Positions 16,101 through 53,540 of a DNA stretch of 64,000 bases are shown piece after piece. The notes below the pieces were generated by a model. It saw only the letters and a list, made by a program, of their open reading frames with translations, did no database searches and was not told where the DNA came from. Source of the DNA: Psammoneis japonica (lineage: Eukaryota); NCBI GenBank assembly GCA_008632985.1, contig QPGO01000078.1, positions 186,001 through 250,000 on the forward strand. Reading direction: 5' to 3'. A program made the position numbers and the translations under genes. Each line of letters starts with the position of its first letter. The first letter of the stretch is position 1.

Positions 16101-16439
16101 GCGCCGCCTGCCCCAATCCTCCCCATGCCGGCACCAGCTCTGCCATTGCTGCCTCTGCTGCCTGTTCCTGTAACAAATTCACCAATGTCATTGCAGCAAC
16201 CTTTGGGCCCACCTGCTGTTGCGTCGTCGATGCCACATTCAACCTGCTGCCAACCCGTTTCTCTTGGGACAGCGAGTTTTGCAGCATCTGCTCCTGTGCT
16301 GCCATCCGCTGTCACTCCAGCTACAAAGAGACGAAAGGTCAAAGAAGAAGAATGCTGCTGTGAGGGAAGAAAAAATCATGTCGAAAATGGTCGTCGGGGG
16401 CGGGTCGCTCACACCTTGTGGTGCAACCGAGGAAAGTAA
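13119..16439 (+). pseudogene. Transposase copy 1, open but hypermutated
   Basis: FDHT, VHTDAWP, RLGxFHAIQR and KGESSLEKFH motifs plus CxxC pairs; only 3 Tyr in the 1171-aa ORF (manual count). Confidence 0.75.
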
Positions 16440-27708: not shown

Positions 27709-30075
27709 CTAGTTCAATTTTCTACGCTTGTACGATCCCTGGTCCTTCTTTGGGGGACGTCTTTTTTGGCTAGCCGAGCTTTTCGCTCGAGCAGAACTTG
27801 AATACGTTCGTCTCTGAGATGCCGCCGAAGTCGTCGTCCTTGGTGCATCAGCCACGAGACCCAGCCCCGTTAAGCCAAGAGACACTCTGCCTCTGTCAAC
27901 AGACAGAATATCCACTCCAACCTGCTGGCCAATCAGTAGGCTCTGCAGCGGAACCGGCCCGAGCTTGGATGTGTGCACGAGACCGTCACAGTGACCTCCG
28001 AAATCACAAAAGGCACCAAAGTCGGCAATGTTTCGAATGGTGGCTTCAATGCCTCGAAGAGGAACAGCTTTAGCTAGTGCTGTCTCGTTTGTCATTGAGG
28101 GAGGCAACAAGACACAGCCATCCAGAGAGCCAGCTTGTTTTGAAACCGTCTTGGCTGTAGAGTCGTTTCGCAGTCGAGGATCAATCTGCATCATGGAATC
28201 AAACAAGTTCTTCATTACGGATATTACGCGTTCTTGGCTCACATCAAACTTGGCCGAAGCCTCTTGCAAGAGAGGTTTGTAATGATGAATCCATTGATCT
28301 TTGGGCGGAACATTTGTTGGCTTTTCTGTTAACTTCCAATCGCATTGTTTTAGTAACCACCGAGCAAGCTCGTACGATTCTGGATGAACAAGGGTCGCAT
28401 CCAAGGCTTCTTGTGACTCCTGTACTCTGACAAACGCCGCACAATTCTCAAACGTCTTTGGGCCCAAGCCAGCCACTTTTAGTAAATCTGCACGCTGGTG
28501 CAACGGACGGGCCTTGACAATCTTGGAGGCAAGTTTTGCCAAGCCAGGCACTTTTTCCAAAATGTCGATACTGCACGTGTTCACATCCACACCGACAGTA
28601 GCGACCGAGTCTACAGATACTAGATTGAGTTTTTCGTCCAATTCTTTTTCGGAAAGATCATGCTGATACATTCCAAGCCCAAGGCTGCGAGGAGGAACTT
28701 TTACCAGTTCGTGTAGTGGGTTTTGAAGACGACGTCCAATCGAGACCGAGGCCACGGCAGCAGGCGGCTGGTCTGGAAAGGCCTCCTTGGCTGCCTCTGT
28801 GACACTCCAGACACTAGCCCCCGCCTCGTTGACGAGTTGAATGTCGATTGGTATCTCTGCAGCTCTGGCCACGTCTCCTACCAATGCACGCGCTTCCTGG
28901 CTACCGTGCCGTTGCCCAACGCGACGACTACCTTTTCGTCCTTGCTCATCATTTCTTGCACCGACAAGAGAAGCTCTTTTAGTCGTTGCATCCCAATCTC
29001 TCGCTTATTTCCCAGAAATTCAACTGTTGCAAGTTTCACAACATTGCCGTTTGGATCCAAAATGGCGCACTTGATACCGGCTTGAAACCCTGGATCCAAC
29101 GCAAGTATGGCGGTGGTTCTGCATGGGCGGTGCCAGTAAGGCATGATATAGATTTTGTTCAAACACCTTGGCGGCCCGTTCCTCGGCCATTTTGCATTTT
29201 TTGACCACAACCGAGTGGTTCCTCTGCGTCTCAACACTCGAGTCCAAGCGTCATGAATAGCCTCGTCCAGAATGGGTCGCCACGAGTTGTTGTTCGCCTT
29301 TAGGGCATCCGGTAAAATCCTGTACAATCGATAACGAATGCATCCTTCCATCTTGTCGCCATCAATATCGTAGCCCATTTTGATTGCCTTTTGATCGACA
29401 CCACGACGAATCGCCAAAACCTGGTGATCTCGGAGACTCTCAATCGGACTCGAAAATCGCTGTAATTGCGGTATTTTGGATCCTCCGTGTTGCACTTGAC
29501 ACGACAGTGTTTGGAGAGCTCCTCCATGACTGTATCAAACACATGAATCTCTCCCGCAATCTTGGTTGAAAGCAAGTGAACAAGAGCTGTTTTGGGAACA
29601 AGACTCTTGATCTCATAGGTTGGTTCTCCGTTCCACAACGCATCAACCTTTTGCACAAGTTCAGGGTGTTCCTTTTGAATACGCTCTAAAATAGACCCTT
29701 TGCTCGGCGGTTTGAAGGGTGCATACAGCGCTTCCAATTCACTTTTTGACGTGCTCGTTTTCACTCGTCTTGCGATTTCCGCATCATCGTCCTTGACGTG
29801 TTGCAACAGCTTGTCTCTCAGACTCGCCAACTTGGAATGCTTTTGCAGAAGCTCATGCAGCACGTGAATTTGCCGCGTCGATAAGGGTGATATCACATCT
29901 GCACGGTATCGACAGACGAATGGAACAGAATTTGCGTCTTGCAAGAGAGGCAAGGATCGTTCCGTGGCTGCGGTTATTGCAGAAGTCGGTATATTATTTT
30001 GTTTCTCGTCTGTTGCATCATTAATGAGTCTTTCGCCCAATCCTGGGCCAGCAAAGAAGGATCGATGGACGTCAT
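27709..30075 (-). CDS. Tex/SRBD1-like S1 RNA-binding protein (several 1-bp frameshifts, probably assembly errors)
   Basis: VPFVCRYR, HQVLAIRRG, ILALDPGFQAGIKCA (YqgF), VNEAGASVWS, GLGMYQHD, HhH GLGPKTF and S1 DFGAFCDFG...GLVH, split over 4 ORFs. Confidence 0.88.
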
Positions 30076-30880
30076 GAAACGTTGTGTCGTATATAAGTTT
30101 GAAGCCTGTCGATAATTAACCAAGAATCCACAGCAAAAGAGCTTGCTAAGCATGATCGATTAGCGGCGGCCCGTTGTCATCGTCGCTGATGTCGGTGTTC
30201 CACTGTTCGTTCGCCTACAGACCTCCCAAAAGCCGGGAGTGGGTTCGGCCTTCGGAAAGTCGCTCGCGCGAAGTAGTGAAGTCGCGCGCACATGCTTTGT
30301 CGGTGCTCTGTCGTGTTTCTGGATTCTGCATTTCTTGGCCCAATCAGATACTTTTATCTGTCCTCAAGACTGTAGTAAATCATAAATAAATATAACATTC
30401 TTGTATATATGACTCATTAGATTGTAGTCACATATTGATGTGTCTCGTTGCTTTCTGTCATAGTCTTTTGTAGGATATGTTTTTTATTAAAAGAAGTATA
30501 TGCCCAATAACTTCTGGAAAATGTCACTCGATAAACTACAGTAATGAGCGTGCGTTGGGTCTTGGTTGGGTCGCGCGCGAAATTTCATGACGACAAAATG
30601 GCGCGTAAATCTACGTAGCGATTGGTATCTCCCAAAACTCAACGCATGGCAAAAATTGAAATTTTAAAAATGCCCAATCGTGCCAAGCAAGTGGTCACAA
30701 TAGAGAAATCCACTAAAAAAAAAAAAAATCCCAACCACGACAGCTCTCACAATTCACAAAAGGTGTGCTATTGGTAAGTCAAATGCGAGCAACAGTGTCT
30801 CTTCCGTGCCTCCCTTTACTCAACTCACAGATGTCAATTTCATCACTGTACCGTGTAGACTTGTCCCACAGTCCGTCACA

Positions 30881-32457: not shown

Positions 32458-32606
32458 CTCTTTGACACGTTCTCCGAGCTGCCCTCCATCATTGCGGCGG
32501 CAACACTGAACACTGAGCCTTGCTCTAGAGTAGAGAGCTCTCTCTCTAGTAGCTAGAGCTAGTAGTAGTCGCTTGTTTTCACGATCGTTTCTTTTTAATT
32601 AATTAA

Positions 32607-35150
32607 GGTTCCGAATGGACCTGCAACCCGGATATACTCCATACAAAAATGCAGTAGCGCTACGTGGAGGGGAATGCGTTGGAATCTACACGAACATACC
32701 ACAGTTCTCAAAAATCATGAAAATCTCAGAATGCGTACGAATGACAATGGCGTTTGCAGCGCTGTGTCGACAGTGCTCCTTCACCTTCCACCCAATCTCA
32801 AGTGGTATTGGATGGACAACGCAGCGATGCATTCGATTCTGAAGCGTGGTGGCCATCCGTCACTCCCCCTTTGTGATGTGGAGAATGCAATGCGTGGGAA
32901 GCGTGATGCCACCGCGACGGAACGGGACCGATTCAACACCCTCGGTGCTCATCATACTTACTATAAGTTTGGATTTCGAGAAAATGGTTACAAATGTTAC
33001 AAAGAACAGCGTGATTCATTCGTCACCATTCCAAGGATTGTGCCAAACCACTTCATTCGGAACTGGACGCTGTTTCAAGATGCGCGCAACGCATTGGAGA
33101 ATGCCGGTTGCACTCGCGCCCCGGATAAAAAGAGTTTGGAGACGGAAGATACCGAATCCAAGACAAGTGCATCAAAGATCAGTGGCTCTAGTTTCAATCA
33201 TGATGTGGAGAAGGGTGGAAGCTCTCCTGAAACTCGGCACAACAGCGGCAGCATCGGTTCCAGTGCCAGCGCAGACGACAACAAAGAAAATTTCGCGTCA
33301 GACTCGTCATTTGACAACATGACCGGCTGCAAGAAGTCTAGCATCAAAATGGATGATAAGTGGATGAAAGATGCATTCAATCACAATCGAAGGTGCGGTC
33401 ATGATGTGAGCTTGGTGGCCAGAACTAATCTCTCACTCGGCTTGAAAGAAGTTTGGCGTTGCTCGTTTTGTCGGAAGGAAATGGTGCGGTGGCCGGCGGA
33501 ACAAGTGAAGCAACAATCAGGCCAACTTGTGTCAGAAGATTTAATTCTTGTTGTGTTGGCTTCCATTGATGCTGGAGTCTCCAGAGAGAAACTGCAGGAG
33601 CTTTGTGCAGGGTTTGGTGGGGTGTGCCCGCCGAAATCTGCAATCGACGAGCAATTCAAACGCATTGAGAAGGTTGGGCCAGCTGTGGTGAAGGAACAAC
33701 TGCTTCAGAATCGCAGAGAGCATGTGGAAGAAAGCAGGAAGCAGCGACATTATGAGGGTGACTTTGAATTTGCCGATCAAGACAGCAAGCATCACAGTTT
33801 CGCGACGGGACCGACAAACAACGATGGTGGCGGACCGATGCGATGGATCTGCCATCGAGTCAAAGGTGTGCTTCATTGCTTGGTCTGCACCAGCTCGGTG
33901 ACAGGCAAGCCACTTGCTGCAATTGCAGATCAAATCAGCTGTGGTGCTTGTTCCCGTGTTGTTGCCATTCATCTTAAAAACCATCCTGAAAAGCGACACG
34001 GCGACATTCGTCCCGGCAAGATTGATTTCTCGCATGATGGCTCGTGTTCTCGGAACTCGAAGTGGCCCCGGGGTGGCAGAAGAGCATGCCAACGTCAAAC
34101 TTGCAAGAGAGCCACTGTTGGACGATGACGGCACCTTCCGGTCTGATGATGTGGGCATTGTGCCCCGTGAGACAACTTCAGATGGGGACACAAGAAGCAT
34201 CGTTGCATTCATAAAAGAGCAGCGTGATGTGGTCGGAGATGCTGCTGAGGGATTTTTGCAGCAGCTGCCTGATGGTGGGCACATGACAAAGACGGTGAAA
34301 GGTGGCTGCTTCACATTGGCATCAAAGAACCCTGAGTTCAAAAAGGGTCTTTCGACTCCACGGATAGAGGCCATTGCATCGGATTATTCTCGACGCATGT
34401 CCCTGTGTCATCACGTGCTTCTGATTGTCGAGAATCGACAGCAACATGTCAGGCACAGCAAAGATGCACAAGAGACCATGGAACAAAAGTGCAAGAGACT
34501 TCTCTGGTTGTTTTCATTCAAGCACCACAAGACAAGGCAAGAGAAAGATGCTTGAATGGCCTCCAGTCAATTGTTCCTCACCACTGTGGAGACCATAGAT
34601 TGTGCGATTTGTGCAACTGCAAGCACCTTCAAGCAGAGCGACGAGTTCGTGTGAGAGCAGAACCACACGGTGTGCATGAACTGCCTCAGCCGTGCAAACT
34701 TGTCATTCAACCAGAGGGCAGATTTAGTCTCAACAGTTGCAAGAACCATGTTTGAACGCTGTGGGAACTTCTGTGACTCCCCTTGTTCCCGCCGCTGCAG
34801 GTGTGCCGTGTCATCGCCGGCATCATCATCACTTTCACAGAACCTGACAAAATCATGGCAAACAAGTGGGTGAGTGTTTGCATTCCAATGGACATAAAAT
34901 GAGCACATCACAAACGACCACACATGTCAAAAATGCAAACACTCATGGGTGTGGATTTTTTGCTTTGTCGTCCTGAGCCGCCATGGTCAAAACCACGATG
35001 AAGTGTCGTGCTGTTCACTTTTTATTTTGACACTTGCGAGGTCATTCTATCTTGACGTCATCCTCCAGCATTTTGTAACGAGAATTGGTCGCATGCAAGC
35101 ACGTGCACACAGTGCTGAGAGTTGGCCGGTTAGAAGGTCCGTTCGGAACC
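32607..35150 (+). mobile_element. Kolobok-like DNA transposon
   Basis: TIR GGTTCCGAA(T/C)GGACCT at 32607 and 35135-35150, flanked by TTAA (32603-32606) and TTGA (35151-35154). Transposase motifs NDG...TGKPL...CGAC...H..C..N, SDGDT and PDGGH. Confidence 0.85.
32674..34700 (+). pseudogene. Kolobok transposase, frameshifted and hypermutated
   Basis: ORFs 32674..34128 and 33914..34555. Tyr is present in the first ~110 aa and nearly absent afterwards. Confidence 0.75.
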
Positions 35151-35154
35151 TTGA

Positions 35155-35620
35155 CCCTTCAACCACCACTGCTTGAGGATGTGTGATGTGTCATGCAATT
35201 TTACAACAACACAATGAACACGGTGTGAAAATGTCATGTCGCGCAGAATCTACGTAAAGCATGCCAAGTGCATTTGCTCATTGGGAGCAAATCTCCACCG
35301 GCGGAGATTTGCTCCAAGGGTGTGGCATCATTGGTCTATTTGCGATGGCAATTCATGACAACCTGCATTGTCAAAGGTTGAGATTTAGTTCCTCTCTGTT
35401 CACAGATGCAGCTTGCAAAAAACCCAGTGTTAAAAGTCGACATTGAACTTTCTAAATCACAAAATGGGTTCCCTGAGATTTTTGGCGAGTGCGTGCTCCA
35501 AAACAAAATCGCGCAAATTTGACATTGTCCATGTCTGAGATTACTTCATTTGCTGTGTTTGTGACGTAAGGGAGCAAATCTCCACCCGTGGAGATTTGCT
35601 CAAGTCCGGTGGTTGAAGGG
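35155..35620. mobile_element. piggyBac-like non-autonomous element (MITE), 466 bp
   Basis: Perfect 13-bp TIR CCCTTCAACCACC...GGTGGTTGAAGGG with TTGA on both flanks (inferred mutated TTAA); two internal GAGCAAATCTCC hairpins. Confidence 0.8.
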
Positions 35621-38600
35621 TTGAGGTGTCTGTGGGGTTGGCAGTTGTTGTGGTGGGGAAACGGGTGGTGGAGGAGGGCGCAGCGCGCTGGGAGAGGGAG
35701 AGAAAAAGGGTTGGCCGAGGGTGCGGACAGATGGTCGTGAGGAGGAGTTGGTGATGGTGGGATGGCAGAGGAGGAAAGCTTGACATGCAGAGAGATGGTT
35801 GGAGAGAGCAAAGCCAAAATTGAGACTGAGGATTTGGGAAGCCCAGAGCAGGGGTGTTGCTGCATGACAGGAGGAGCCGAAGTGATCGGGTGAAAGTTGT
35901 TTCCAGGCCGTGTTGGACTGGGCGAGGAGGTTGGAAGGAGCCAAAAGGGAGTTGGTGCAGGCGGAGAAGGATGCTTGCGAGTCAGACAAAGAGGATGGGC
36001 TGGACCAGGGCGGTTTGGGAGGGAGGGGCGGGATGGAGGAAGAGGCAGTGGTGGAGGCACCAAAGAAAAAGACATGGAAGTGATGTCCAATGCCTTCGAG
36101 GTGGTCGAAGGCAAAAGGGAGGAGGAAGAGGCCTGCTTGGCCAATGGCATCAATGACGTCAGAGCCATGAGCAGAGGATGTAGAACGGCCGAGGAGCTTG
36201 TCCCGAGTGCTGCTGAGGTGAGCCTTGTTGAGCGGGTTTTCAGGGACAGGCAAACCAGGTGCAGGAGGCGGGGGAGCGGGCAGTGCGGTGATGTCAATTG
36301 CCAGGAATTGGTGGGTGGATGGGGTGTTTGGTGGTGTGGAGCCGGGAGCAAGTTGGACGCCAACATTGGCGGGGCATTTTGGAGGGTGGTCGGGTGGGAG
36401 TCCGGCAGGGTCGAGGTGGACTTGTTGGCGAGACTGGCAGAGACCTCACATGGGCCGAGGGTTTCGATGACAGTGCAGATGGTGTCAAGGATGTGGTTGG
36501 ACAGAGGGCCTTTGTGCATTTTGGAGCAGGCAAAGGCGTGATCGCCGCATGGGTTGGGGCGGGCGTGGCCGCATGGGCAGTTGTGTTGGGAGAGGGTGGA
36601 TGGGACAATGGGCAGGCGGAGCTTGCGTCGGAGGAGGATTGTGAAGAGGTGTGGCGGAAGGTGGTTGGAAGTGGGGGTGCGGGGTGGGGAGTGAAGGCAC
36701 AGGCTTGTGAGTGGGGACAACAAGGATGGGAGCACCAGTTGGATGGAAGGATCAGCGAGGAGTGGGGGAAGGGTGTTGTGCACATGATGGTGGAGGTGAA
36801 GGCGCTGTGAGAGACCGCGCAGGGTGTGGTGTTTGACAGCGTGTGGAAGGGAGGTGAAAGAGGAAGAATCAAGTTTGAGAAGGGTGGGAGTGCAGTGGCG
36901 GAAGATTTGGTAGAGGGAGAGAGTAGAGCAAGGGTTGGACCATGAACCAAGAGCAGTGGAGCAGCTTGAGGGAAGGTGGAAGATGGCGCCACCGGTGAGT
37001 GGGACACCATGTTTGGTGCAGCGGACAGATCGGAGGAGGGAGGTGATTAGAGCGGGGACGGCAGCTGCGGAGATGACTCGACATCCGATGCCGCCCAAGG
37101 AGATGGGCAGGGTGGCAATGAGTTTGGAGGTGGATGGGAATGGGTTGGCATGTTGGGTGAGGTGGGTGAGGAATCAGAGGGAGTGGCCGATGATTTGGTC
37201 GGTGAAGGGGGATGCCCATTGAAAGGGGGGTGGGAAGTCGTTGGAGTGCAGAAGATTGCAGCATGCGTCAGGGGACAGCAGGTGGGTGATGGAAGGGATG
37301 GAGCACTTGCGGAAGAGGGTGCTTTGTGTTTGTTTGTCGGTGAGGCGGACGGTGAGGCGATGAAGGTCGGTGGCAAAGGAGGTGGCCTTGTTGTGAAGGA
37401 AATCGAGGGCGAAAGCGGGTGAGCCAATGGGTTGACCGAGGAAGCGGGTGCCGGTGGTGATCTCGGGTGTGACATGGGGGCTGTTGTGGGGATTTAGGAA
37501 GGTCAAGGCTTCGGAGAGTGCGGCGGCATCGGCAGGTGGGAGGCGGTTGATGGGAGAAGAGCCGGCAATGGATGTGAGAATTTGAGTCTTGGAGGTGTTG
37601 AGCTTGATGCCAAATTGGGGGCCGCAGGTGGAGAGTTGTTTGAGGAACCAAGGGAGCTGGGAGAAGGGAAGGAAGATGTGGGTGTCATCAATGTACGAAG
37701 AGGCAGCAGATTTGGAATGGGGAGGGAGTCGATGACATGGTTCGTCGTTGATGGGGTGGAATGCACGAGCCAAAACAAGGCAGGAAAAGGCAGGGCTGAG
37801 GGGGCAGCCTTGAGCAAATCCCTCGGGTTGAGAGAAGGAGGACCATTGCAAGCAGTGGTCACGGCACCAGCAAGTGTCAGGGTCTTGGTGGAGCAAGTCG
37901 AAGAAAGGTGTGAGAGGGCGGTGCTCGTCGGAGTTGTCAAGGGTGTGGCGACAGGCGTCACGGGAGCATTCGTTGAAGCAATTGGACAGGTCAAGGAGGA
38001 GGAGAGCTTTGGTTGGCGTGGAGTCTGGTTGAAAGAATCATTCAATGTTGGCCCAGTCGAGACCTCCTTTGATGCCGACTCCGAACTGGCCAGAGAGCAG
38101 GAGGTTGGCAGCGAAGGTGGCGGCAAAAAGGAACATGATGAGGGTGCCGACGATTCTGCAAAGGGCTGTTCTGACGCCGATGGGTCGAAGCTTGGAAAGG
38201 TTGGATGAGTCTTTGTGGAGAGCAAGGAAGCAGTTGGAAGAAAAGACAGGTTTGATGGATGCAGGGACATCCGCTGCAAGAATGAGATCGAGCAGATGTT
38301 TGAAGGTGAGCAAGCAGGGGCAGGAAGTGGATGTTGGCGTGGAACGGCGGTGGAGGGCGCAGGCCTTGAACAGGTCGGTGGAATCGGCAAAGGCGCCGGG
38401 TGCTTTGCCTGGTTGACATTTGGCGAGGGCTTTGCGGAGATCGTCGGTGGTGCAGTGCAGGGGGGAGGAAGCAGATCGTTGGTGTTGGGTGGAGGGGGGG
38501 GAAGGCAGCGGTGGGTGTTCCCAGGGTGGATAAAGTTGCTTGACAAGTTCCATGCGTTCGGGGGTGAGAGAGGCAACGGGAAGGGAGGAGGTGGCCCGGG

Positions 38601-40002
38601 CACAGGCGGCATGAAGGTTGTTGACGTTGGCGGCAATTTGGGCGGAGTGGGCGCAGGATGTGTTGTCAAAGTCGGGAGGTTCGTCAGACATGTCTGGGAT
38701 GGGTGTTGAGCGAGATTGGTCACAGAGGGCATGGATGGAACCATCATGGAAGAGGAAAAGACGTTGTGTGATGGTGGTGGAGAGAGGGATGTTGGAGTTC
38801 TTGGGGCTGGGCAGAGGATGAGAGATTCAAAGAGGAAGAGGAGCTTGAAGAAAGGGTCGGAGGCCGTTTGCCAAGAAGGGGGTGGGTCGTCAGCGGGGTC
38901 GAAAGGCTTGGAGGAGTCGACAGTCCATTGGATGAGGTGATGGAGGGTGAGAAGGACCTGGAGGCGAGAGGAAGGGGGGAGTTTGTGCCAGATGGAGGCA
39001 CAGAAGGGCGGGGGCGACAGGGGCAGTGAGTGGAGCCACTGAAGGGAGGCTGTCCAATCAGCAAGCTCTTGGCGTGGGTGGGAGGATGCAACGAGCTGAA
39101 CATTGGCAGTTGTGCGGGGTTGAAAATGGATGTTAGAAATGTGGGTGTGCAAACGTGTGTCACGGAGGCATGTCTTGGTGGTTCGTTGGCAATGTCGGCA
39201 TGGGTGTGGGTCATGGAGCTCGAAAAAAGAGTCGGGGATGGTGCGGAGGCTGCGGTGTTTGTGCACAGAAGAGAGATGCATGCACAGGAGCTTGGGTGCT
39301 TGAGGCGGAGGAGTGTTGGGTGGGAGGGAGAAGGAGCAGCCCTCGAAGGGGCAGGAGCAGTTGGCAACCCCTGGCGGGGCACGGGTGCTGATGGGCTCCA
39401 TTGCTGGAGGGTGGGGCGAAGTGTGCTGGGGTCTTGATTGGTGTCGGCAGCCTGTTGGGTGAGTGTGGACCACTCGGCGAGGTGTGTGGGAGCAAAGGTG
39501 TGGACCCATTGGTCGAAGACATGGAGAAGCTCGAGGTCGTTGAGAGCACTCGATGTCCATGTCGGGCAGGTCGGGGTGTGATGTGCGTTCCGTGGGCATG
39601 GACGGGGCGGTGCGTGCCAAGGTGGGAGTGTCAGTGGCGAAAGTGTCGGGGTCCATGGCAGTGGTTTCGGAGGAAAACGTGGAGCCGTCGAGGTCGGGAG
39701 GGTGTGAGCGTTTCTTGCGTTGTTGAGAGGGGGCGTGGGGGTGCTGACGCATGTCGGTGTGGTTGGGGACGGTGGCGTGGGTTGCCAGGAGGCTTCGAGG
39801 AAGGAGAGGGCTGTTTCGGATGGGGTGTCTTGAGAAGGTTGAGAGGTTGCTTGGGCAAAGGACGTGGATGTTCGGGCAGGGGAGGGAGGGGGGCATCGGG
39901 AAGGGAGGTCCTTGAGGAGGTGTTTGGGGATGTTGGGACAGAGGTGGAGGGGGGCGTCAGTGATGTCCACGACAAACGGGGTGGCAAAAAAAAGGAGCTT
40001 GT

Positions 40003-40727
40003 GATGCGTTCCAGCCCCAGGTGGGACTCCGTGTGACATTGGGCCCGCAGAATTCTACGTGCGAGCTCCGCATTACGAGAATTTAATTGATGGACACATT
40101 TGTCTTCAACGACATGTTCCAGGTCTAGGGGACTCGNNNNNNNNNNNNNNNNNNNNNNNNNNNNNNNNNNNNNNNNNNNNNNNNNNNNNNNNNNNNNNNN
40201 NNNNNNNNNNNNNNNNNNNNNNNNNNNNNNNNNNNNNNNNNNNNNNNNNNNNNNNNNNNNNNNNNNNNNNNNNNNNNNNNNNNNNNNNNNNNNNNNNNNN
40301 NNNNNNNNNNNNNNNNNNNNNNNNNNNNNNNNNNNNNNNNNNNNNNNNNNNNNNNNNNNNNNNNNNNNNNNNNNNNNNNNNNNNNNNNNNNNNNNNNNNN
40401 NNNNNNNNNNNNNNNNNNNNNNNNNNNNNNNNNNNNNNNNNNNNNNNNNNNNNNNNNNNNNNNNNNNNNNNNNNNNNNNNNNNNNNNNNNNNNNNNNNNN
40501 NNNNNNNNNNNNNNNNNNNNNNNNNNNNNNNNNNNNNNNNNNNNNNNNNNNNNNNNNNNNNNNATGTCAAAAGTTGTTGGACGGATGCTCAACAAGTGCA
40601 CCGTAAAATGACACAAAACACAGAAAAAATCACGCAGAAATCTACGTGCGTGACATACGATGTGATTCAAAAAACTGTCAATGTCACAGTTCAGCAGTGC
40701 GAGGTCCCACCTGACCTGGAACACGTC
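40003..40727. mobile_element. TIR element (ends GAYRYRTTCCAG...CAGGTGGGA) inserted in the CRE element, spanning the gap
   Basis: Imperfect inverted termini at 40003 and 40727 with TTGT on both flanks; related termini at 40111, 42007 and 48970. Confidence 0.55.
40137..40563. other. Assembly gap (N run)
   Basis: 427 N characters. Confidence 1.
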
Positions 40728-43639
40728 TTGTGTCAGACCAGGGTGTCACTGTGAGAGAAAAAAACAGGGATGATGCCAAAAAGGTCAGGGGTGGTGAGAA
40801 GTTTGTCGCAGTTCTTGGCTTGGCGTTTGTTGATGGCTTGCAGGCGCATGGCGATGGGAAGGATTTTGGGAAAGGAAGGGAAGGGGACAACTGAAAAGGA
40901 AAGGCGAGGACGTGTGTGATTGGAGGCGGCGTGTTGGAAGGGTTGACGACGGACAGAAAGGAGGTCCACATTTCGGGCGTGGAGGTGGTGAGGAAGCAAA
41001 CGTCAGACTGGGGGATCTGGCGGTTTGGGCGGAGAAAGTTGGGAAGTGGGAGGGGCGGACGCCGATGTGATCAAGGAAGGTGCCACACTCAGAGAAAAAA
41101 GAAAGGGTGGGGTCTGAGGGGTTGGCAGGTGAAAGGGATTTGACATGAGTGTGCAGTTGTTGGAGAAGAAATTCGCAGGTGCGTCGAGATTGACCGCAGG
41201 TTTTGGGGTTGATGCCGGCGAGGATGCCACGGGCTTGTTCAGCAAAGGAGTTGCAAGCAGGGATGAGAAAGGTGGCACAGCGAGTCCAGGGGTTGGGAGA
41301 TGCGGGGGTGTCTGTGGCATCCGAAGGAAGGAAGTCAGGGGAGGTGGAGGAGGCGGAGTGGTGCTTGAATTGTGCAGGAGGGTGAAGGTGCCAATTTTGC
41401 ATGGCGAAGCGGAGAACTTGGTCATGGAAAGGGAGGAAATTGAGGGGTTTGTGGGAGGAGACGGGAGCAAAGGTCAGTTCAAAACAGGAGGCCCATTGAT
41501 TGTGGCAGGGGCGGGAGCGGCGCTTGGTTGCGGAAAAGGTGCAACAAATGTCGATGGCGCGCGAGTGCGAACGCAGCAAGAAATTTGCAGCACATGCACC
41601 CACAATTCACAAACGACAAGATTGAACGGACAATCTTGCTCGTCATGACTGTCATTCATGCCGCAAGCCAGAGATCACTCCATTGATTGGAGGGATGAAA
41701 ATTTGCTGCAAGAGAAATGTTGAGTGTGGGAAGAAGCAAGGCACAATTGCGTTTGAGGTTCACACTGTCCACGGGAGCAGCAGAGCCCTCACAACAAGTT
41801 GCTTGCTGGGCTGAAATGAGCAGAAGAAGCACTCTTTGTTGAGCAGGAAATTGACACACCACTTGCCTTGGGACAGCACAGTTTTTTCAAGGAAGATGTG
41901 GTGGTTGAAGTTGTGGTTCTTTGGCTTCATGCAACTCTGTCTCACAAAAACAAACAAGGGTGTCGCGCGTGTCAAGCCTTTTCAAGCCGTTTGGCAAAAC
42001 CGCAAAGACGTGTTCCAGCCCCAGGTGATGCGCTGAATGACAATCTGTTTTGAACACAATTTGTGTGAACTTTGTGCATTGAGGCTGCTCATCAAAGTGC
42101 TTGTGCAGTCTGGCTCTTTTGCACTCGATCAGAGTGCGGGCAGTCAAACAATTTTTTCATGGGTGTTCAAGTCTTCACGACACATGTGCCACAAAACTTT
42201 CATGCAGAAACAACGCTGACTGTACATCCACACTCATGCCACAGAAATTTTTGTGCAAGCAGATTGACGCTGCAAAATGTGCGCACAAATCTTTTGTGTT
42301 GGCCTTCAAACAGCAACAGCATGTGAATCTTCAAACATTTTTGCGAAAATCATCCGTTGTGTTGCAACTCGTTTGTTGCAATGAAAAAACATTGACTGCA
42401 CAAAAACAACAATGTTGCGACACTGACACGAGTCTTGTCAGTGTTGCGGGGCATTTGCACTTGTACAAATCCATGCCTTTGGTGGCAAAAGCTTGTTCGC
42501 AAGTCAGAGGCTGCACAAAAATCATGTGAATGTCATTTTTGTGCACATTTTGGTTCACATGCGGCTGGAACACATCCAAAACAAGGGCTGGGTTGGGTTG
42601 TTTGAAGCAGCAATGCAGAGAACAACACCACATCTGCTTGCCATGTTCACATGAAGATGGTGCACACAACAAAACAGGGCAGAAAATGGAGCTGCTCTGC
42701 AAGCAACATCAGGCCGTTGGAAGGAAGTGGCCTCGAGCAAGGTGCTGTTTGCCTGCTCCGGCTCAATGCTTCCACAAAGGTCAGCCTCTTGGTTTGTTGT
42801 TTTTGGTCAATGGCACTGCATTGCTCTGTTCACTTGCTGGGTGGGGGCAGGCAGCACACAGGGAAAAAGAGAAATTGCAAGCTGAGCTTTGGCCTTCACA
42901 GGTGCCAGAAAAACTGCTCTCTTTCGTGGCCTCAGAAACCAATCACACAACAACTGTTGGCTGCGGCACAAGCCACAAGAAACCAGATCTCAAGCCATTC
43001 GAGCTCTGGCAGGCTAAGAGAAGCAGTGAGAGTGGGTGGTGCTGGTGCCAAGCAAAAAGCGGTTGGGAGAATTGAAAAGACTTGCTGAAAATTGGGTTTC
43101 GTCAGTCACCAAAATGTGCCCAGTTGCAATGACTGAATTTTTTGAAATCGTCAGTTGTCAGAGCTGCAGAACAAGAGCAAAGTCATGAAACATTGAAACA
43201 TTGGGGTTTCCAAACACCAGTTGGGGCACATGCTCAACTGTTGTGCACTGCATGTCTGTCTGAACACGACGTGAACTCCTCACGCACGCGCACTGCTGGC
43301 AGAGGCAGTTTCCCTCTGACAATGACAAAACACAAACAACCAAAATAATTTGAACGACATAAAACATTCGCTTTCCACTGCTCACTCCGACATCACAACA
43401 TGCACTTGACTTCGTTCAGCTCGTCAGGAGCTTTCCATCAACACGCAGCACAATGTGCTGCGTACAGAGAGTGCACCAGTCACAAGCAAGAGAAGGGAAC
43501 AAGCGACGGAGGGCAATCGTCGGGCGATTGGCACCGCAATTACAGGTCTGCATTGAATGGTAAATAGAGTTCATGCAAGCAATGCCATTGCTTCGCGATG
43601 CAACGCCTTGCCGGGAAGCATGCGTCATTGTCTCGAGAA

Positions 43640-46600
43640 TGCAAGGTTAAATGTAATTGATGCAGGCTGTGCATCCATGAACAACAAACAAAAAATGGAA
43701 GACACCAAAGGTGACACAGTCGAAAGCAACTCTTGGCGCTGAATCACTGTTCCATGCAATTGTTTCCAAAAGCATTGCAACAGCAAGAGCAGCACAAGCA
43801 ATCCACAGAATCGTTGAGACAGTTTGAGGAGAGGATGTCAATCAAGTTCTCTCGCATGCAAAATGTTTCACTGAAGTCATTGGCAAAAGCATTGCCATGA
43901 ACGCAGAGCTCCTCTGCACGAAATGACACATGTGCAAAAGCGTGAGATGTTGCAGGAACACAAACACCAGAATTCCAGCATCAGTTGGCCACATTCCCAA
44001 CGGTTGCCTGCCGAGATTCTTGAGATTCGCCACAACAGAAGGGAATGATCCACTGAGACCACAAAGCTGAATGCCCAGTGAGGAGAGACCAGCGCAGCCT
44101 CCAAGCTCGGTCGGCACTGTCCCACTTAAGTTGTTTTGTCCCAAATCAAGGCTGCTGAGCTTTCCAAGGTGTCCAAGCTCCGTCGGAATTGGGCCTGTGA
44201 ACCCAGCATCGTTGAGCCAAATTAATGCAGCGCTCTCAAGGTTCCCCAACGTAGATGGGATGGCACCAGCAAACGAATTTTCATTCAGCTTTATCTCTTT
44301 GAGCTGCAAGAAACTGCCGACAGCCTCAGGAAGACTTCCCGACAACTCATTCGCTACGAAATTAATGAACCTCAATGAAGCTGGATTCGGTCGAGGTGAA
44401 GAAGCTCTCGAGTGCGCCGTCCAGTTGATTCTCCGCAAACAACACAGCCTCTAGCTTTTCCGAAACAAAAGGAGGAATCTCCCCTGTCAAATCATTTCCG
44501 TTCAAATCAACTGCCCTCAACGAAGGCAGGGACCCAACCGACGGAGGAATCGTGCCACTCAAGGAGTTGCCACAGAGATTGAGCCAATCCAGCTCCAGCA
44601 GATTTCCAATTTCAGATGGCAGAGGGCCGGAGAACTCATTGTCGAAAATTTCCAAGTGAGCAAGTTTGCGAAGACTGCCTGCAGAAGAAGGCATTTTTTG
44701 AACGAGATTGTTTGACGAAATGTCCAATTCCTCCACATGGACGAAATTTCCAATTGTTTCAGGAAGGACCCCCGATAGCTGGTTGTTCTTGAAACGAATC
44801 CGCACGATCGTCTCCGAGGACGACGAGCCGAAAAACTCGTCAAGAGAGCCAGCAAGGTTGTTTCCCTTCACCCAGACCTCCGACACGCGGTCGCCAGTGA
44901 AAGGAGGCATGTGGCCAGAAAGACGATTCCCTTGAATGTCAATGCCAACAAGGATGGCAAGGCAGCAATTGCTCTGGGGATTGTTCCTGTCAACTTGTGT
45001 TGATGAGATCGAGTTGCTCTAGCCGTGTGAGGCTGCCAAGAGAAAGAGGCAGTTCTCCGGTGAACTCGTTGTCATTGAGATTCAACACACGCAATTCGGG
45101 ACTCCCGGAAAAGGAAGGGACATTGCCAACGAAGCCATTCGATGACAGGTCAAGAGACAGCAGATTGCTCAAGTCTCCGATAGATTCTGGTAGCTTGCCA
45201 TCCAGTTGGCAACCCTTGCATGTAAAGGAAGACAGAGACTTTCCAAAAACGGATGGCAATGACCCCGAAATTTGATTTCCGTCGAGCCACAACGATCGAA
45301 GACTCTGGATTCGAAGTGGCGACGCCGGCAGCGACCCAGTCATTGAGTTGAAATCGGCATCGAAAATCTCAAGTTTTATGAGGCCACCAAATGCTTGAGG
45401 GATGTGCCATGAGATTGTTGCTCTTTGCCTCAATGGACTTCAGCTGTGATGGGACGCTTGTTTCAAGAGGGATCGTGCCGCGCAAGCCATTGTGAGCTGT
45501 GGAAAGTTTGATCATTTGTCAGCAATCTTTGTTAGAAACACCAAGGTTTGCAACGCCGGACATTGCATTTCAAAGACTTGCGCAAACTGATTTTTTCAAT
45601 GGCGTTGCCAGCGCAAAAAACGCCGTTGTTTCCATCGTTCCACCCACGTGCATTTTCGCTCGAAAGAAATGCGCAGTCATCATCCCACGTCATGCCTTCC
45701 GTTGCATGGTGCAGCAAGAGCAACATTCTTGAATTTCCTTTGCGGTGGTTTCGATGGAGAGGCTGGCTGGATCTTCGGCGGCAAGCCAATTCAGCGCAAT
45801 TTCTGTGGCGTTCCGTCCTCCAACAGCGCTTCTCCAGACAAAGGAATGAGTTTTTGAGAAAGATGCTGGAGAAGCGTCGGATCCTCAATGCACGTGCATT
45901 GGTCAACGACGTCCCACAAGTCAGCCCTCAACGCATTGCATTCCGATGAATCTGACGGAACATGCACCATGTGCACATTCCATTCGGGTGTGATTTGTTG
46001 TCAACACGAAGCTGGGGCATCTCCAAGGGGACAGACGCATTCATGCATGTCGCACAAGTTACGTTCGCACTCAGGAGATTTGGCATGGGGGCAACCACAG
46101 TGTCGCCAAGCCTGAGCTTGTCCCTGCAAACAAGCTTCACTGGCGACATTGAGCTGCCCCAGTGTCTCGTTGAAGTCCGCGCAGGTAACACCATCTTCTC
46201 CTAGAACAAGGTTGTGTAGATCCACTGGAGAAAACCCATCTTCACACAACGTGCAACTGCTTTTGATCGGATCAGGATCTGGATCGGGATCTGGATCAGG
46301 ATCGGAATCAGACGGAAGAAGGGTGACAACAAGACTAACAACAATCGCAGCCATTGCAGAAGTCCCATCAGGGCCATCCATTTCCTCCGCCTGCTGCAGC
46401 ATGAGGTCGCATTGTCGTCAGAATTTTCGTTCACCACAAGCTCGGCTGGCTCGGCTTGCTCCATGATCTGTTTCTGAACTTGAGGTGCAATTTCATCTCT
46501 TTCTTCATGGACTCGAGCTTGCACCTGGGCTTCAAGATCCTCTTCTCCAGGAACGACCTCCGCCGCTGCAGCCAATCCTTCATCGCCATTGGTGCAGAGA

Positions 46601-47264
46601 GATGTTTCGGAATGCTCTCCTCGGTTTCAGACCTTGTTGCAAGATGGGGTCCAGACACAAACTCGACCAATGGAACCGTGTTTGTTTTCGATTTGATGAC
46701 CTCCCCATCAGCCGGCGCATTCGTCGCCCGAGCCATGTGAATCATGTCATGGGACGAGCTTCCTTCCCGGCGTGGTTCCTCCTCCTCCGTTTTCTCCTCT
46801 TCCATGCTCGGGCGATGCCTGTAGACTTCTCCTGTCTTGTCCTCGAGCAGAGCATCTTGGGACGAGCATTGCATGCCTTGGTGCATGTTTTGCTTCTCGT
46901 GATCAATGTGATGGTGTTTTGGCACCGTCAAAGAAGGACAGCCTTCGTCCATGACAGATTTCATGTGCGAACGAGCTGGTTTGTTCTCTGTGGGACCAAC
47001 GGCCACAGCACCAGGCATCACATTCTTGTCATGCGTTCTGTGGCCTGCGAGACGCCTCTTTTCTCCCAAAACACCAAGCTTGCCCTGAAATTTATCAGGG
47101 GGATTATTGCTTGCTGGCTGGGCCAAAGATTCAGGTTGTTTTGCACGAACATTGTGATTGTCTCTCTCCGAGTCCCTGCCGTCTGGGCATCTGCTGGGGA
47201 TCGCCGGAGGTTTCCGATCATCATCATCGTCGGTTCTGCTGTGCAAGGGCTTTGAATGCATCAT
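43640..47264 (-). pseudogene. Diatom-type LRR receptor-like protein gene, hypermutated and frameshifted
   Basis: PGAVAV-type N-terminus, TM segment, Cys-rich CTLCEDG module and many plant-type LRRs (LxLxxNxLSGxIP); expected Tyr replaced (LNLCGN, LLLLHHAT). Confidence 0.85.
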
Positions 47265-47399
47265 TTCGTTGTCTTTTTGTTACGAGTGCACTGCTGTCAA
47301 GGTTTCTTTTTTCACAATGCGATGGCTTGGTCACACATAAAACGCGCAACACAAAAAAAGCGAACCACCATCAATCATCCAAAAAAAAAAATCAAAAAA

Positions 47400-50300
47400 T
47401 GAGAGCTCGCCCTTCGAGGGAGGATTGGGAATGGCGCTGCTGTACGAGAGCCAATCAGAATTCAGCATTTGGGATTTCCACTTGGGGGAGACCCTCGGAA
47501 AGTCGAGGACTTTCCGACTGATTAATTGACACTTTTTTGGAAAATCTGACGCAATCACTTGGGGACGAGGAGGTTGAGACAACTCTCCAAAAGCAGACAC
47601 AAGAGTCAGAATGATGCGGAGACCGACTGTCATCTTCCTTTCGCGCCACGGAAAATCACAACAACACAGACTTCTCACGCGATGAGAAAAATTCTCTCAC
47701 AAAAAAAACCCACGAGAGAGAAAAGTACAATCTCTGCTGGTGCTTCGATGATGACGGACGTAACGGAAGAATCTGCTCCAACAAAAGAGGCTGAAGAGCG
47801 GCAGCTGCATCCTTTCTTTGGAAACATGGGCACTCAATCCCAGAAACGCAAAGGCTCCATCAAAACGAGCAAAAGCCAAGCGTGCACACGCCAGAAGCGG
47901 ACGCATCAGAGCGATTTTAGTGGGCGCAAGGTGGCAAGAGTAGACGATGGAACGAAGAAATGCAAGAGATGTGAGAGAGGTCCCACATGTCATCATGGCC
48001 ATGATCCCACATGCAAATTTTCAAAAAGGCACTCGCAAGCGAACGTCACCAAAGCCACCATGGATGCAGAGCGACGCGACAAAGAGCTGCACGAAACAAA
48101 CAACACGATTCCGGCTGCCCCAGTTGAGGGAGTTTTGACCACACGAGACCATTTTGGAACACAGAGACCTGAAGCTCGCGTCACATTGCCTCCTCCAGGT
48201 GTTTCCAATGTTTGCAAGCCGGTGAATTCGGGGGTGGCTGGTGCTGCAGGCCCCGTGGAGTGCACGGGTGATGCTTGCAAGGCGGCCGCCATTACAAAAT
48301 TTTCGGTTGAGACTTTGAAACAAGAGATTCGAGCGAGAGCAAAAAAATGTGAGAACTCCGAGGAGAGGACGAAGTGCCCGGCTGCAGCAAGTGCTCTCAT
48401 CAGCCATCTGTTGGACTCTGTCAAGCCAGATTCGAGCAAGGCAGCAACAAGCATCCTGCCAAAGAGACAGCAGTCAAGAAGGTAGATGTTGTCATTGCTG
48501 GGTGTGTTTTGTGCATGAGTTTTTGATTCACTGTTTCATTTCAACGTTGCCGATTCCTGCACTCCAACAGCATCAACAACCTTTGTTTTTAGCCGGGTTC
48601 GCAAGAGTTGCAGCAGTCGCAACAACAGCAGCAGTCACAAGAGTTGCAGCAGTGGTTGTAAGAGCTGAAGCAGCCATCGTTCTTGCATGCCCTGTGGAAC
48701 ACGCTGTCAATGACTGAAGTCAGAAACAATGCCACAGAGATGAGCTCTGGGACAAAAGCAACGTTTGCAATGCAACAGAACCACGACCAGCTGCTCCAAC
48801 ACTGTAGACTCCCATGCTCCTGCACAACTGATCCAGTGCCACCTGCTCCCTGTGCCACCCAGCTGCAAAACTTTGACAATCCAAACCACCTTTGAGGGCA
48901 GGTGAACCCTGTCGCAACGGAGATTCGGGTCTGCGGCGGTTGAAGGCACTCCCGTCCTTGGAAGTGCCAGACGCGTTCCAGACGCAGGTGGGAATCCGTG
49001 TGACATTGGGCCCGTAGACTTCTGCGTGCGAGCTCCACAGCAAAATCATGCGGCAATTAAAATGTCAATGATTGCCAACAGAAAATGAGGCAATTTTGCG
49101 AACGCACAAACTCGCCCATAATTGAAGTGCATCATTTTTTACTTGGCCAGTTACATTCTTCAGACATTGAAGAATGCAACTGGCGCATTGTTGTTTCTAT
49201 AAATTCGTCACACGAGACTTTGAAACAAGAGATTCGAGCGAGAGTAAAAAAATACGAGAACTCCGAGGAGAGGACGAAGTGCCCGGCTGCAGCAAGTGCT
49301 CTCATCAGCTGTCTGTTGGACTCTATCAAGCCCAGATTCGAGCAAGGCAGCAACAAGTATCCTGCCCAAAGAGACAGCAGTCAAGAAGGTAGATGTTATC
49401 ATTGCTAGGTATATTTTATGCATGAGTTTTTGATTCACTATTTTATTTCAACGCTGCCGATTCCTGCACTCCAACAGCATCAACAACCTTTGTTTTTAGC
49501 CGGGTTCGCAAGAGTTGCAGCAGTCGCAACAACAGCAGTAGTCACAAGAGTTGCAGCAGTGGTTGTAAGAGCTGAAGCAGCCGTCGTTCTTGCGTGCCCT
49601 ATGGAACACGCTGTTAATGACTGAAGTCAGAAACAATGCCACAGAGATGAGCTCTAGGACAAAAGTAACGTTTGCAATGCAACAGAACCACGACCAGCTG
49701 CTCCAACACCGTAGACTCCCATGCTCCTGCACAACTGATCCAGTGCCACCTGCTCCCTGTGCCACCCAGCTGCAAAACTTTAACAATCCAAACCACCTTT
49801 GAGGGCAGGTGAACCCCATCGCAACGGAGATTCGGGTCTGCGGCGGTTGAAGGCACTCCCGTCCTTGGAAGTACCAGTCAACGCCTTACCGGGGAGCAAC
49901 CCCTTGGCTCTCGTCGGCCGTCTCAATGTTCAGAGGTGGGGCCACATGAATATTATTGCAGAAAAAAATTACCGAGGCGCTGCTGCAGTCAGCAACCTCG
50001 GCAGTGGCCCGTGTTATTTAAAGACGAGGGCAACCTCGTCTGCCGCTTATACGCGGACTTTTCCAGCCAAAGTGGTAGATTGTAGATAAAAAAATGACAC
50101 AAACCGCACCCACAATCAATGTATGGCCATCAATCTCTTCAAGTAGCGTGTCAATGGCACCTGAGGCAGCGCCGCAAGCAGCGATACTGCAAAAATCCTG
50201 AAACGCCACCCCGATGACTAGCAAACCCTCATTGACGACTGGAGAAGAGTCGACTGGAACCACAACGATTGCAGTGCAAAACATCAGCGTACGAGACGCT

Positions 50301-51387: not shown

Positions 51388-53540
51388 CTACTCGCTAGAG
51401 AGTGGGAATAAGCTAGATTTTTTCTTCTCCAACACTTGAATCATTTCTTCTACATCGTCGTGCTCGCCGGTGAGCTGCTCCACCTCTGCCGGAGTCATGT
51501 TGAGGCGACTTCCCTTGTCGGGGCCACATACAGCAGTCTCAACCCGATTCCGTTGTGTCTCGTCTAGAGCAGTCTGAAAATAGTGCTCAAGCATTGCAAT
51601 AATGTCAGACGCTGCCATGTAACCAAGGTTGAGCTTCTTGTCGATGCGTCCTGGACGGATAAGTGCCGGATCAAGGTGTTCCGGATGGTTTGTGGTCATA
51701 ATCACTATACGATCAGGAGTATCCACAACACCATCTAGAACGTTGAGGATTCCTGTCAAATTCAGGCGATCCGGAGGAGTGAACATGCTCATGTAAGGCG
51801 ACAAGTCGGGCTTTGGCTTGTCCGCATCTGAAGAAGGCAGAACTCCTAACGGAGGCCACATTTTCTCATCAACGGGACTACTCGTTTTGGCAGCATGGAG
51901 CGACGCAGTGTCATTCTGCTTAGAGTAGCTTGTGCCACGCGACATCGAAGGCCTCATCAAAGAATGGAAAGAAGGTTGTTCACTTCCAAGCAGGACTTCT
52001 TCGTTGATTTCGGCGCCTAGGTCAAGCAGTTCGTTGATGGTTTGTGCGTGAGCGCTCATGAACTTGTCGACGGCAGCTTGCTGGGCCAACAACGACCGGG
52101 AAGTCCTTACAGCATCGTCTGTAAGCTTGTTTAGAGTTTTGTCGTTCGTTTCGCCAACGAATCCTAGACCAGGTAAGCTCGTGAGCCTCTTGGCGACCGA
52201 CTCGACAGTCTCAGGCTTCAGCGCCTCTTCTTTGAGCCGGTCGGATTTCTTCATCAACGTCTTGACGAGCTTCTTACACTCTGGATCAGAGCTCTCAAGG
52301 AGCAATTGCCAGATTGACTTGGGAGCAGGCAGGTCTAGCTGGTGAGCCTCGATTAAATCCGATGCTTGCTTTCCATCGCGTCTCTTTACAACATCAGAAG
52401 CGGCGTCGATATCCTCCATGACAAAGATGACGTCCTTAAAGTCGAGCTTGATCGCAACGCCTTCACCCTGGACAAAGAAGTTCTTGTCGAAGAAGATCGA
52501 CATTAGTTTGGCGTTGGTGGATATCTTGGAAAGTGGCACGTTGACAATCGATCGACCAGTGTGCTTTGCCAAAGCCTTGATGAAACTAGTCTTGCCTGTT
52601 CCTGGCGGACCATGAAGCAGGAGCCCAAGTTTGTTTGGGTACCCCTCAAGCGCGTACTTTCCCTTCTTTTTGGTGAATGAGTCTACCAGTTTAAGAATTG
52701 ATTTCTTTTCTGGGAAGAACAAGGACTTGAACGTTTTATCTTCGGACAGACGAAAACGGGTGTACTGCTTCGCAGTGTTTGAATCCGAGTCGGAATTTGA
52801 TTCCGTGGTACTTTTCGCCTGAAGATCGTAGTAGTACCGTGACTGGTCTTCTGACTTTTTGAGCTCGGAAATGTACCACTTGTAAGCGGTTCGAATAAAA
52901 GCGTCAATAGAAGCTCCATCGTGCGATCGAAAGCTAAACGTCGTCACTTGCACCTTCTTTTCCGCATTCTTGTCACCACCATCGTTGGAACCGCTCTGCG
53001 ATGAATCAATTTTCATCCAGACGTTGCATGGGCTACCATATGTACCAAGATCATGCCATTTCTGGTGAGGCGGGTTCTTGACAATCTTGAGCCGTTGGAG
53101 TATGCCTACAACAGTGCGGCCATAAGACGAATGGTTTCTTCCACTGGATCGATCTTCCATTTTGTAAGACTCAAGTCGGCCTGTTTCAGATGCAAGTCCA
53201 CTTTAGAATGACAGAAAAGACGAATTGCCTTGATAAGGACATAGTTTTGCGAATCAGAATCGACGCTGACGCTCCCACCATTGATATTGGCTTGCGAACG
53301 ATAAGAAATGGTGCGCTCATGCCAAGTAACAGGTTTTCTTCCCGTCCACCATCTCTTCCAAGAGTCGTAGTCAAAGTACTTTTGGAGCGCCTTGACAAGG
53401 CCAAGCAACCGCTGAAGTGCAAACGGAAGCAAGAGGGCCACAATCATGTCGGTCCTAGAGTCTCCCGTCTTCAATGCGTTCAGGATGCCGAGGCCTTGAA
53501 TCCCTCCGGCCATTCCTCCGAGATAGTCTTCTTCGCTCAT
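51388..53540 (-). CDS. BCS1-like AAA+ ATPase (one 1-bp frameshift near 53160)
   Basis: GLLLHGPPGTGKTS, VMEDIDA, LNVLDGVVD, MTTNHPEHLDPALIRPGRID. Adding one A to the A-run joins the two ORFs (LTKMEDR). Confidence 0.9.

Follow-up and report, generated by a model that had tools for sequence, protein, structure and literature searches.

TpA depletion and loss of tyrosine in a leucine-rich repeat gene within a transposon island of Psammoneis japonica

The window analyzed in this study is a stretch of 64,000 nucleotides of Psammoneis japonica DNA (contig QPGO01000078.1, positions 186,001 to 250,000), and its subject is a leucine-rich repeat (LRR) gene on the minus strand at positions 43744-46381. 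The gene lies in a continuous block (~33000-49000) that is depleted in TpA and enriched in TpG and CpA, and its reading path of 814 codons contains no tyrosine. What the window shows is the signature of this depletion, how far it extends over the region, which way it runs in repeat pairs, and what it does to the gene. The explanation that we regard as probable is a regional, collateral TpA to TpG/CpA mutagenesis of a host-type LRR gene in a transposon island, of the kind reported for Bigelowiella natans, in which integrated viral DNA undergoes localized TpA to TpG/CpA hypermutation (Mettrop et al., 10.64898/2026.01.13.699255).

Dinucleotide frequencies are given as the ratio of the observed count to that expected from base composition (O/E). 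The window has a GC content of approximately 48% and a single run of N (40137-40563). Over its whole length, the O/E of TA is 0.29, with an excess of CA (1.46) and TG (1.39). The deficit is patchy: the blocks at 1-4, 14-22, 34-48, 54-58, and 60-62 kb have TA O/E values of 0.02-0.19, and the ordinary gene stretches (the bins at 24001, 26001, 50001, and 52001, among others) are at 0.46-0.61. The block that holds the LRR gene is the largest TA-poor block of the window. When it is divided into 500-nt bins, 31 of the 32 bins from 33001 to 48501 have a TA O/E of 0-0.30, the exception being the bin at 40001, which is mostly N. The adjoining bins at 32501 and 49001 have values of 0.74 and 0.50, respectively. 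In 43640-47264, the interval in which the initial annotation had placed the gene, 24 TA are present (O/E 0.11) versus approximately 218 expected by base composition, together with 176 CG (0.76); TG (1.32) and CA (1.43) are raised about equally, as expected if both DNA strands are acted on. Six ordinary open reading frames (ORFs) of the window, assigned by Pfam to a methyladenine glycosylase, a sulfatase, a Tex-like protein, an AAA ATPase, a BTB protein, and a fasciclin, have TA O/E values of 0.44-0.55 and CG values of 0.87-0.99, and the earlier description of the gene as TA-depleted is borne out by this comparison. Codon usage is not the cause, since the coding span (TA O/E 0.12) is TA-poor along with both of its flanks, on the 3' side (43100-43742, 0.19) as well as on the 5' side (46382-47320, 0.08). 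In the blocks at 1-4, 54-58, and 60-62 kb, both CG (0.08-0.35) and TA (0.03-0.09) are nearly erased, while CG is kept at 0.6-0.9 in the TA-poor blocks at 14-22 and 33-49 kb. The gene had also been called "still CG-rich," which is true relative to the former blocks. The two kinds of TA-poor block may have decayed by two processes that can be separated, or may have been silenced at different times.

The direction of the change is seen in repeat pairs, which serve as internal controls. At the right edge of the block, the inner copy of a 662-nt direct repeat (48309-48970, plus strand) has its partner outside the block at 49214-49877. The two copies differ at 27 positions; at 18 of these, the outer copy reads TA and the inner copy TG or CA, with no case of the reverse, and at 4 positions, CG in the outer copy stands against TG or CA in the inner one. 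In the pair 3163-3438/6331-6606, 9 of the 10 differences are TA versus TG/CA, the latter in the in-block copy, and the reverse is again absent. Both pairs share 95-96% identity, and because only the in-block copy was mutated in each, homology alone is insufficient for the change. The tandem repeat copies between 12.8 and 23.7 kb have 57-119 differences with only 2-4 transversions, and TA is lost in either copy. Across the repeat pairs, 0-4 transversions occur among 10-119 differences, and some of the transitions are at CpG. The conversion of TA to TG or CA is thus a real substitution process that continues after duplication, acts on both strands, and is confined by position. At some sites, CA in one copy faces TG in the other (48405-48406 versus 49310-49311, and 5 double sites in the read-contig comparison described below), a pattern that independent mutation of one ancestral TA (or CG), on a different strand in each copy, would produce. 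The tandem or nested repeat itself (12854-23713) has a unit of ~4.6 kb with copies that are 96-97% identical, and it contains read-through ORFs of 1173, 1079, and 757 amino acids (TA O/E 0.06-0.16, Tyr 0.3-0.6%) for which no Pfam match was found.

The LRR gene starts with an ATG at 46381 (or 46354) and ends with a TGA stop codon at 43746-43744. Its 814-codon path runs through six frame changes (near 45800, 45735, 45405, 44995, 44930, and 44385 in a three-frame reading), one in-frame TGA, and two candidate introns. The N-terminal part (46004-46381, minus strand) comprises a hydrophobic signal-like stretch, an Asp-Pro repeat encoded by a 6-nt tandem repeat (46265-46311, minus strand), and a Cys-rich domain; it has no Pfam match, and hypothetical diatom proteins retrieved for its domain from the ESM Atlas, with scores of 0.77-0.78, fall short of the threshold score and are a lead only. 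The in-frame TGA (46001-46003, minus strand) separates the Cys-rich domain from the next open stretch and possibly arose from CGA by CpG decay. This open stretch carries TPQK and LNWLAAEDP and is followed by the N-cap motif LHHATEGMTW (45685-45714, minus strand), which fits the cap motif [LIVMAF]-p1-p2-x-[TS]-x-G-x-x-W of LRR proteins; the Pfam family LRRNT_2 was not matched by the N-terminal part. Candidate intron 1 (45497-45581, minus strand, 85 nt) has the donor GCAAGT and gives the best LRR-pattern junction (ISLPHNGLRGTIP) of five frame-compatible candidates, an alternative donor being GTTTGC at 45587. The LRR region of ~1.5 kb follows (44013-45496, minus strand, in several frames). Tandem plant-specific-type LRRs are present: LRR_1 (E 1.7e-20), LRR_8 (E 1.1e-11), LRR_4 (E 1.2e-10), and LRR_14 match the overlapping minus-strand ORFs 43845-44450, 44365-45018, and 44993-45439, which lie in three frames, and the repeats match one another at 28-42% identity by tblastn. 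Candidate intron 2 (43914-44011, minus strand, 98 nt) has the donor GCAGGC and the junction NLKNLEELCVHGNAF, with GT donors further upstream as alternatives; the choice of both introns was made from the fit of the reading path and is tentative. The Cys-rich C-terminal cap (DCLCCSCCCNAFGNNC) and the stop codon occupy 43744-43913 (minus strand), where no Pfam match was found.

The predicted product is a secreted-type extracellular LRR protein. The initial annotation had named an LRR receptor-like gene spanning 43640-47264; the LRR assignment stands by Pfam, while "receptor-like" applies only loosely, since no kinase domain was matched by Pfam and no membrane-spanning stretch is visible in the translation (judged by eye, with no dedicated predictor). 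The span has to be narrowed as well, because the gene, which is on the minus strand, has its end at 43744, and the interval 46434-47279 is a separate upstream ORF in its 5' flank. This ORF (minus strand, 282 amino acids) has a TA O/E of 0.07, 6.0% His, and a single Tyr, and no family match at E<=1 in Pfam.

The effect of the TA loss on the protein is most apparent in its tyrosine content. The 814 codons include 15 His and 31 Cys and not one Tyr, in contrast to 71 Tyr in the 2694 codons (2.64%) of the six ordinary ORFs, so that the gene is Tyr-depleted, as the initial annotation had stated. Tyr is less common in LRR relatives (1.4-1.6% of aligned columns), and even at a rate of 1.5%, the probability of finding none in 814 codons is 5e-6. 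By codon phase (positions 1-2, 2-3, and 3|1), the gene contains 0, 11, and 7 TA, compared with 71, 91, and 94 in the 2694 ordinary codons. One position allows a direct comparison. The cap motif is present in 85 of the 241 LRR proteins retrieved, with 169 instances in total; 146 of these have Tyr at position p1, 16 have Phe, and 1 has His. The gene has His at p1, with the codon CAC at 45709-45711, which is the outcome expected from TAC to CAC. With its lack of Tyr and with His where Tyr stands in 146 of 169 instances, a host-type gene in the mutagenized block does bear the signature of the process, as the annotation had proposed. A comparison of Tyr columns with 120 LRR relatives was also made and set aside as uninformative for Tyr to His or Cys changes; in the control, Tyr was aligned with Tyr in only 11%, and Tyr is not conserved in generic LRRs.

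By the codon table, no stop codon (TAA, TAG, or TGA) can arise in any frame through the change of TA to TG or CA; only the conversion of TAA to TGA or the removal of a stop is allowed. The TpA process alone thus cannot kill a gene by truncation. It can recode Tyr, the ATA codon of Ile, and a first-position A after T, and it can alter signals that contain TA. Since TAA and TAG are erased in such DNA, long ORFs are to be expected in the block, and open frames say nothing on function. Of the frame changes in the LRR gene, some at least stem from errors of assembly or from differences between alleles. In read contigs, a 1-nt deletion at 44389 fuses two ORFs into one of 391 amino acids, and a 1-nt insertion at 45800 lengthens the open stretch from 69 to 103 amino acids and puts LNWLAAEDP in frame. 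In a contig that differs over 44739-45091 by just 2 substitutions, 2 additional letters stand at the very site of two one-base shifts, while an insertion at 45408 alone does not mend the frame shift at that place. A pseudogene call for the LRR gene was considered and set aside as unproven, as the frame shifts are unreliable where read contigs mend some of them. Neither the killing nor the diversification of receptor gene families, which the initial annotation had suggested as possible effects, is demonstrated by the window. In TA-normal DNA, the conserved Tex-like gene (27712-30115, minus strand) is spread over three overlapping ORFs, with a frame change near 28905 inside the YqgF domain that leaves no room for an intron and so points to assembly indel errors or a pseudogene.

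The earlier statement that the gene is sandwiched between transposable elements agrees with its surroundings. A reverse-transcriptase (RT) ORF of a retroelement lies inside the block (37177-38037, minus strand; RVT_1, E 3.3e-11; TA O/E 0.05), and a Mutator-like match was found by Pfam at 32599-34125. Stretches with a summed read-contig word depth of 1100-114000 are present on both sides of the gene (42204-42805 and 47321-49427), versus 117-234 over the gene unit at 43107-47320; the summed depth is not a copy number. By read-contig depth, most of the block is repeated DNA, and the bins with approximately single-locus depth at 41602-41902 and 42806-43106 hold 0 and 1 TA, respectively. The peak summed depth (114,267) is reached at 48826-49126, and it is at this sequence of very high copy number that the TA-poor block has its right edge. 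Junctions of 42027 with 48990 and of 49183 with 42006 occur in some read contigs; no homology above noise (local score 44) was found between the 42006-42027 and 48826-49126 regions. A Pfam search at E<=1 with the flanking repeat ORFs, the upstream ORF, and the N- and C-terminal parts of the gene gave only DUF7669 (E 0.71). The sense strand of the RT element (35500-41500) is the minus strand, with 43-45% C, 14-15% G, and 66% pyrimidines. In the ORFs of the element, Pro, Ser, Thr, and Leu are abundant, and the GC skew of the plus strand is ~+0.5. Transitions leave the purine content unchanged, so that this strand bias is not accounted for by TpA or CpG decay.

Read contigs were also compared with the window for the kinds of difference that they contain, the spectrum covering the 40 best-supported of 1032 differences and 12 of 71 indels. 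Among these 40, 6 have TA and 10 have CG in the reads where the window has TG or CA, 5 are CA-versus-TG double sites, 2 have TA and 3 have CG in the window, and the rest are of other kinds. The LRR unit (43107-47320, ~4.2 kb), with its upstream region included, attracts extra related contigs as a whole; near-identical contigs account for a depth of 52-56 over the unit, as against the summed 117-234. Of the words sampled from the stretch, a fraction of only 0.57 is present in the one DNA run listed as carrying it, which may be the source sample; no RNA run is listed as carrying the stretch.

A course of events that would account for these observations is as follows. The LRR gene would be a host-type secreted gene situated in a silenced island of mobile-element DNA. 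A process at the DNA level would turn TpA into TpG or CpA, which amounts to A to G on either strand because TpA is its own complement. The entire island, ~16 kb long, would be subject to it, with the gene mutated as a bystander. The outcome would be recoding without truncation, in which the TAY codons for Tyr disappear, His (CAY) emerges at the one site that can be checked, and most synonymous and cross-codon TA steps are lost as well. Donors of the form GT-A might likewise have become GC-A, as both best-fitting introns start with GC-A, GT alternatives being available for each. The process would probably be targeted by chromatin or silencing state and not by sequence homology, and its chemistry may be the deamination of adenine to inosine, as proposed for B. 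natans, where an ADAT2-like deaminase is the suggested agent (10.64898/2026.01.13.699255).

Several observations weigh against this explanation. The left edge of the block falls within the Mutator-like ORF. The enrichment of TG/CA over the LRR gene averages ~1.37, below the cut-off of 1.52 used for the B. natans clusters, although our O/E may differ in computation from the Rho of that study; per 500 nt, the gene has values of ~1.15-1.48, below the cut-off, and its flanks 1.5-1.9, above it, while TpA throughout 33-49 kb is within the range that defines those clusters. Of the 13 best-supported differences within 43640-47264, 2 have TA and 5 have CG in the reads versus TG or CA in the window, and the latter indicate that CpG decay also acted. 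No substitution within the LRR gene itself could be polarized, and the conserved Tyr positions open to comparison amount to a single one. Contigs that are 86-88% identical to the gene were found in one DNA run carrying the stretch (97 differences in 842 nt for record 3, 107 in 777 nt for record 5, and 58 in 450 nt for record 6), so that related copies of the gene exist, and most of the TA loss may be common to them.

The initial annotation had offered collateral and paralogue-directed mutagenesis as alternatives, and of the two, collateral (regional) spread fits better, because the depletion is unbroken over 16 kb and extends across the RT element, the Mutator-like ORF, repeats, spacers, and the gene. 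Paralogue- or repeat-directed mutagenesis, which would follow the logic of fungal repeat-induced point mutation (RIP) with another target dinucleotide and near-identical copies as the trigger, is retained as a rival that we consider unlikely. The repeated nature of most of the block, the tandem copies at 12.8-23.7 kb that are mutated on both sides, and the related contigs of 86-88% identity over 450-842 nt in the same run are in its favor; it is difficult to reconcile with the two pairs of 95-96% identity in which TA was lost only from the in-block copy (18 versus 0 and 9 versus 0 sites), with the TA-free stretches at approximately single-locus depth, and with the main hypermutated region of B. 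natans, which is single-copy (10.64898/2026.01.13.699255). Somewhat more doubtful still is the proposal that the LRR unit is cargo of a mobile or foreign element, i.e., a captured gene or a viral insert, and was targeted as foreign. The unit of ~4.2 kb is matched as a whole by extra related contigs, a Mutator-like ORF lies ~10 kb away, and the targets in B. natans are integrated viruses (10.64898/2026.01.13.699255). Against this, no terminal direct or inverted repeats were found around the unit, even in a transition-blind alphabet (the longest flanking matches are 22 and 18 nt, versus 18-27 nt in 20 shuffled controls), Pfam detected no transposase or viral domain in 43100-47320, and the architecture is that of cellular extracellular LRR proteins.

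Two further explanations dispense with a mutagenic process acting on the DNA of the island. If no special mutagenesis had occurred, low TA and the lack of Tyr would result from selection on the mRNA or protein or from the composition of the family; all genes of the window do have fewer TA than expected (O/E 0.44-0.55), and Tyr is indeed rare in LRR repeats. This is very improbable, as the noncoding flanks are as TA-poor as the coding part, the lack of Tyr is unexpected at the rate of the relatives (P 5e-6), His occupies a position at which 146 of 169 motif instances have Tyr, and the depletion starts and stops with the block and not with the gene. ADAR-like RNA editing of retroelement transcripts, fixed by reverse transcription, would suit the presence of an RT element inside the block and the preference of ADAR enzymes for U before the edited A (10.64898/2026.01.13.699255). 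It is hardly credible all the same, given that TG and CA are raised on both strands, that the gene, the spacers, and the DNA-transposon-like ORF are affected alike, and that copies already in place keep diverging at TA.

The regional mutagenesis that we favor has its closest counterpart in B. natans. There, de novo changes were recorded in two integrated viral regions, and 230 of the 231 were A to G or T to C. All GC-ward hypermutations were at TpA, and 124 TpA-depleted clusters were counted genome-wide. The TpA-poor genes of B. natans are enriched in RT and DDE-transposase domains, and some host-like domains are found among them (10.64898/2026.01.13.699255). The two cases share the target dinucleotide and its products, the clustering of the depletion, the gain of CpA and TpG, and the attack on foreign or selfish DNA, represented here by RVT_1 and the Mutator-like ORF, with the LRR gene as the exception. 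They differ in the host, which is a chlorarachniophyte (Rhizaria) in the one case and diatom-like (Stramenopila) in the other, and in the targets, which are giant-virus or virophage inserts in B. natans and transposon islands here. The depletion is also deeper in the window (TA O/E of 0-0.2, near saturation) than in the nucleocytoplasmic large DNA virus (NCLDV) region of B. natans (0.45), and the B. natans signature was measured de novo, whereas that of the window is read from the sequence. In a full-text literature search, TpA-directed hypermutation was found described only for B. natans, and nothing was found on diatoms. The window suggests that a TpA process works near saturation in a diatom-like genome, which would widen its host range. 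That an ordinary cellular-family gene was rewritten along with transposons suggests a regional process and would argue for targeting of a domain and not of homology. An unusual property of the process is that the protein loses every Tyr, yet reading frames are spared.

In fungi, RIP requires duplicated sequence and changes C to T mostly at CpA; TpA and AT content increase, and stop codons arise. It has been suggested that by its leakage, fast-evolving gene families are diversified or inactivated, and in Leptosphaeria maculans, RIP reportedly leaks into effector genes embedded in repeat-rich compartments or isochores. The LRR gene resembles these cases in that a genome-defense mutagenesis of repeats also altered a single gene among them. 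It differs from them in that TpA is nearly erased, CA/TG and GC content are raised, and no stops are possible, and in that only the in-block copy lost TA in two pairs here, whereas RIP mutates both duplicates. CpG decay via cytosine methylation also gives TG and CA and acts in some transposon blocks of the window (CG 0.08-0.35); 43640-47264, in contrast, keeps CG (0.76) while TA is nearly gone, so that CpG decay and the TpA process are separable. We also mention, as a speculation to which we attach little credence, that diatoms might possess a TpA-specific DNA-editing defense aimed at chromatin domains rather than at repeats in themselves, which would erase TAA and TAG, recode genes without stops (Tyr to His or Cys, and GT-A splice donors to GC-A), and supply germ-line variants to LRR receptor families embedded among transposable elements. 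Such a defense would parallel the leakage of RIP in the effector compartments of fungi, without the stops.

The relatives of the LRR gene are distant. Protein searches with a 218-amino-acid LRR piece returned only generic LRR proteins at 22-46% identity and no paralogue. A HMMER search with 45535-45927 against 1.84 billion representatives gave a single hit, again a generic LRR protein (E 4.8e-4), and of 164 pattern matches from a scan of metagenomes for the locus, 0 were confirmed. Diatom LRR receptor-like genes form a multi-member family, some members of which are reported to be under positive selection (PMC5485032). With the plant-type extracellular and diatom LRR proteins described in that source, the predicted protein shares the LxxLxLxxNxLxGxIP repeats, the N-cap motif ending in W, and the Cys-rich caps. 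It differs from them in having no kinase match, no visible membrane anchor, no Tyr, and database relatives that are at most 46% identical.

Among the other genes of the window, the AAA/BCS1-like ORF (51391-53202) has 1098 relatives at E<=1e-20, and among the 120 of these that were listed, every match that names an organism is from a diatom, at 44-56% identity, the database containing no closer relative. The methyladenine DNA glycosylase gene (11942-12670, minus strand; Adenine_glyco, E 3e-38) is TA-normal and adjoins the TA-depleted tandem repeat; its position is probably a coincidence and is of note since the suspected chemistry concerns damaged adenine.

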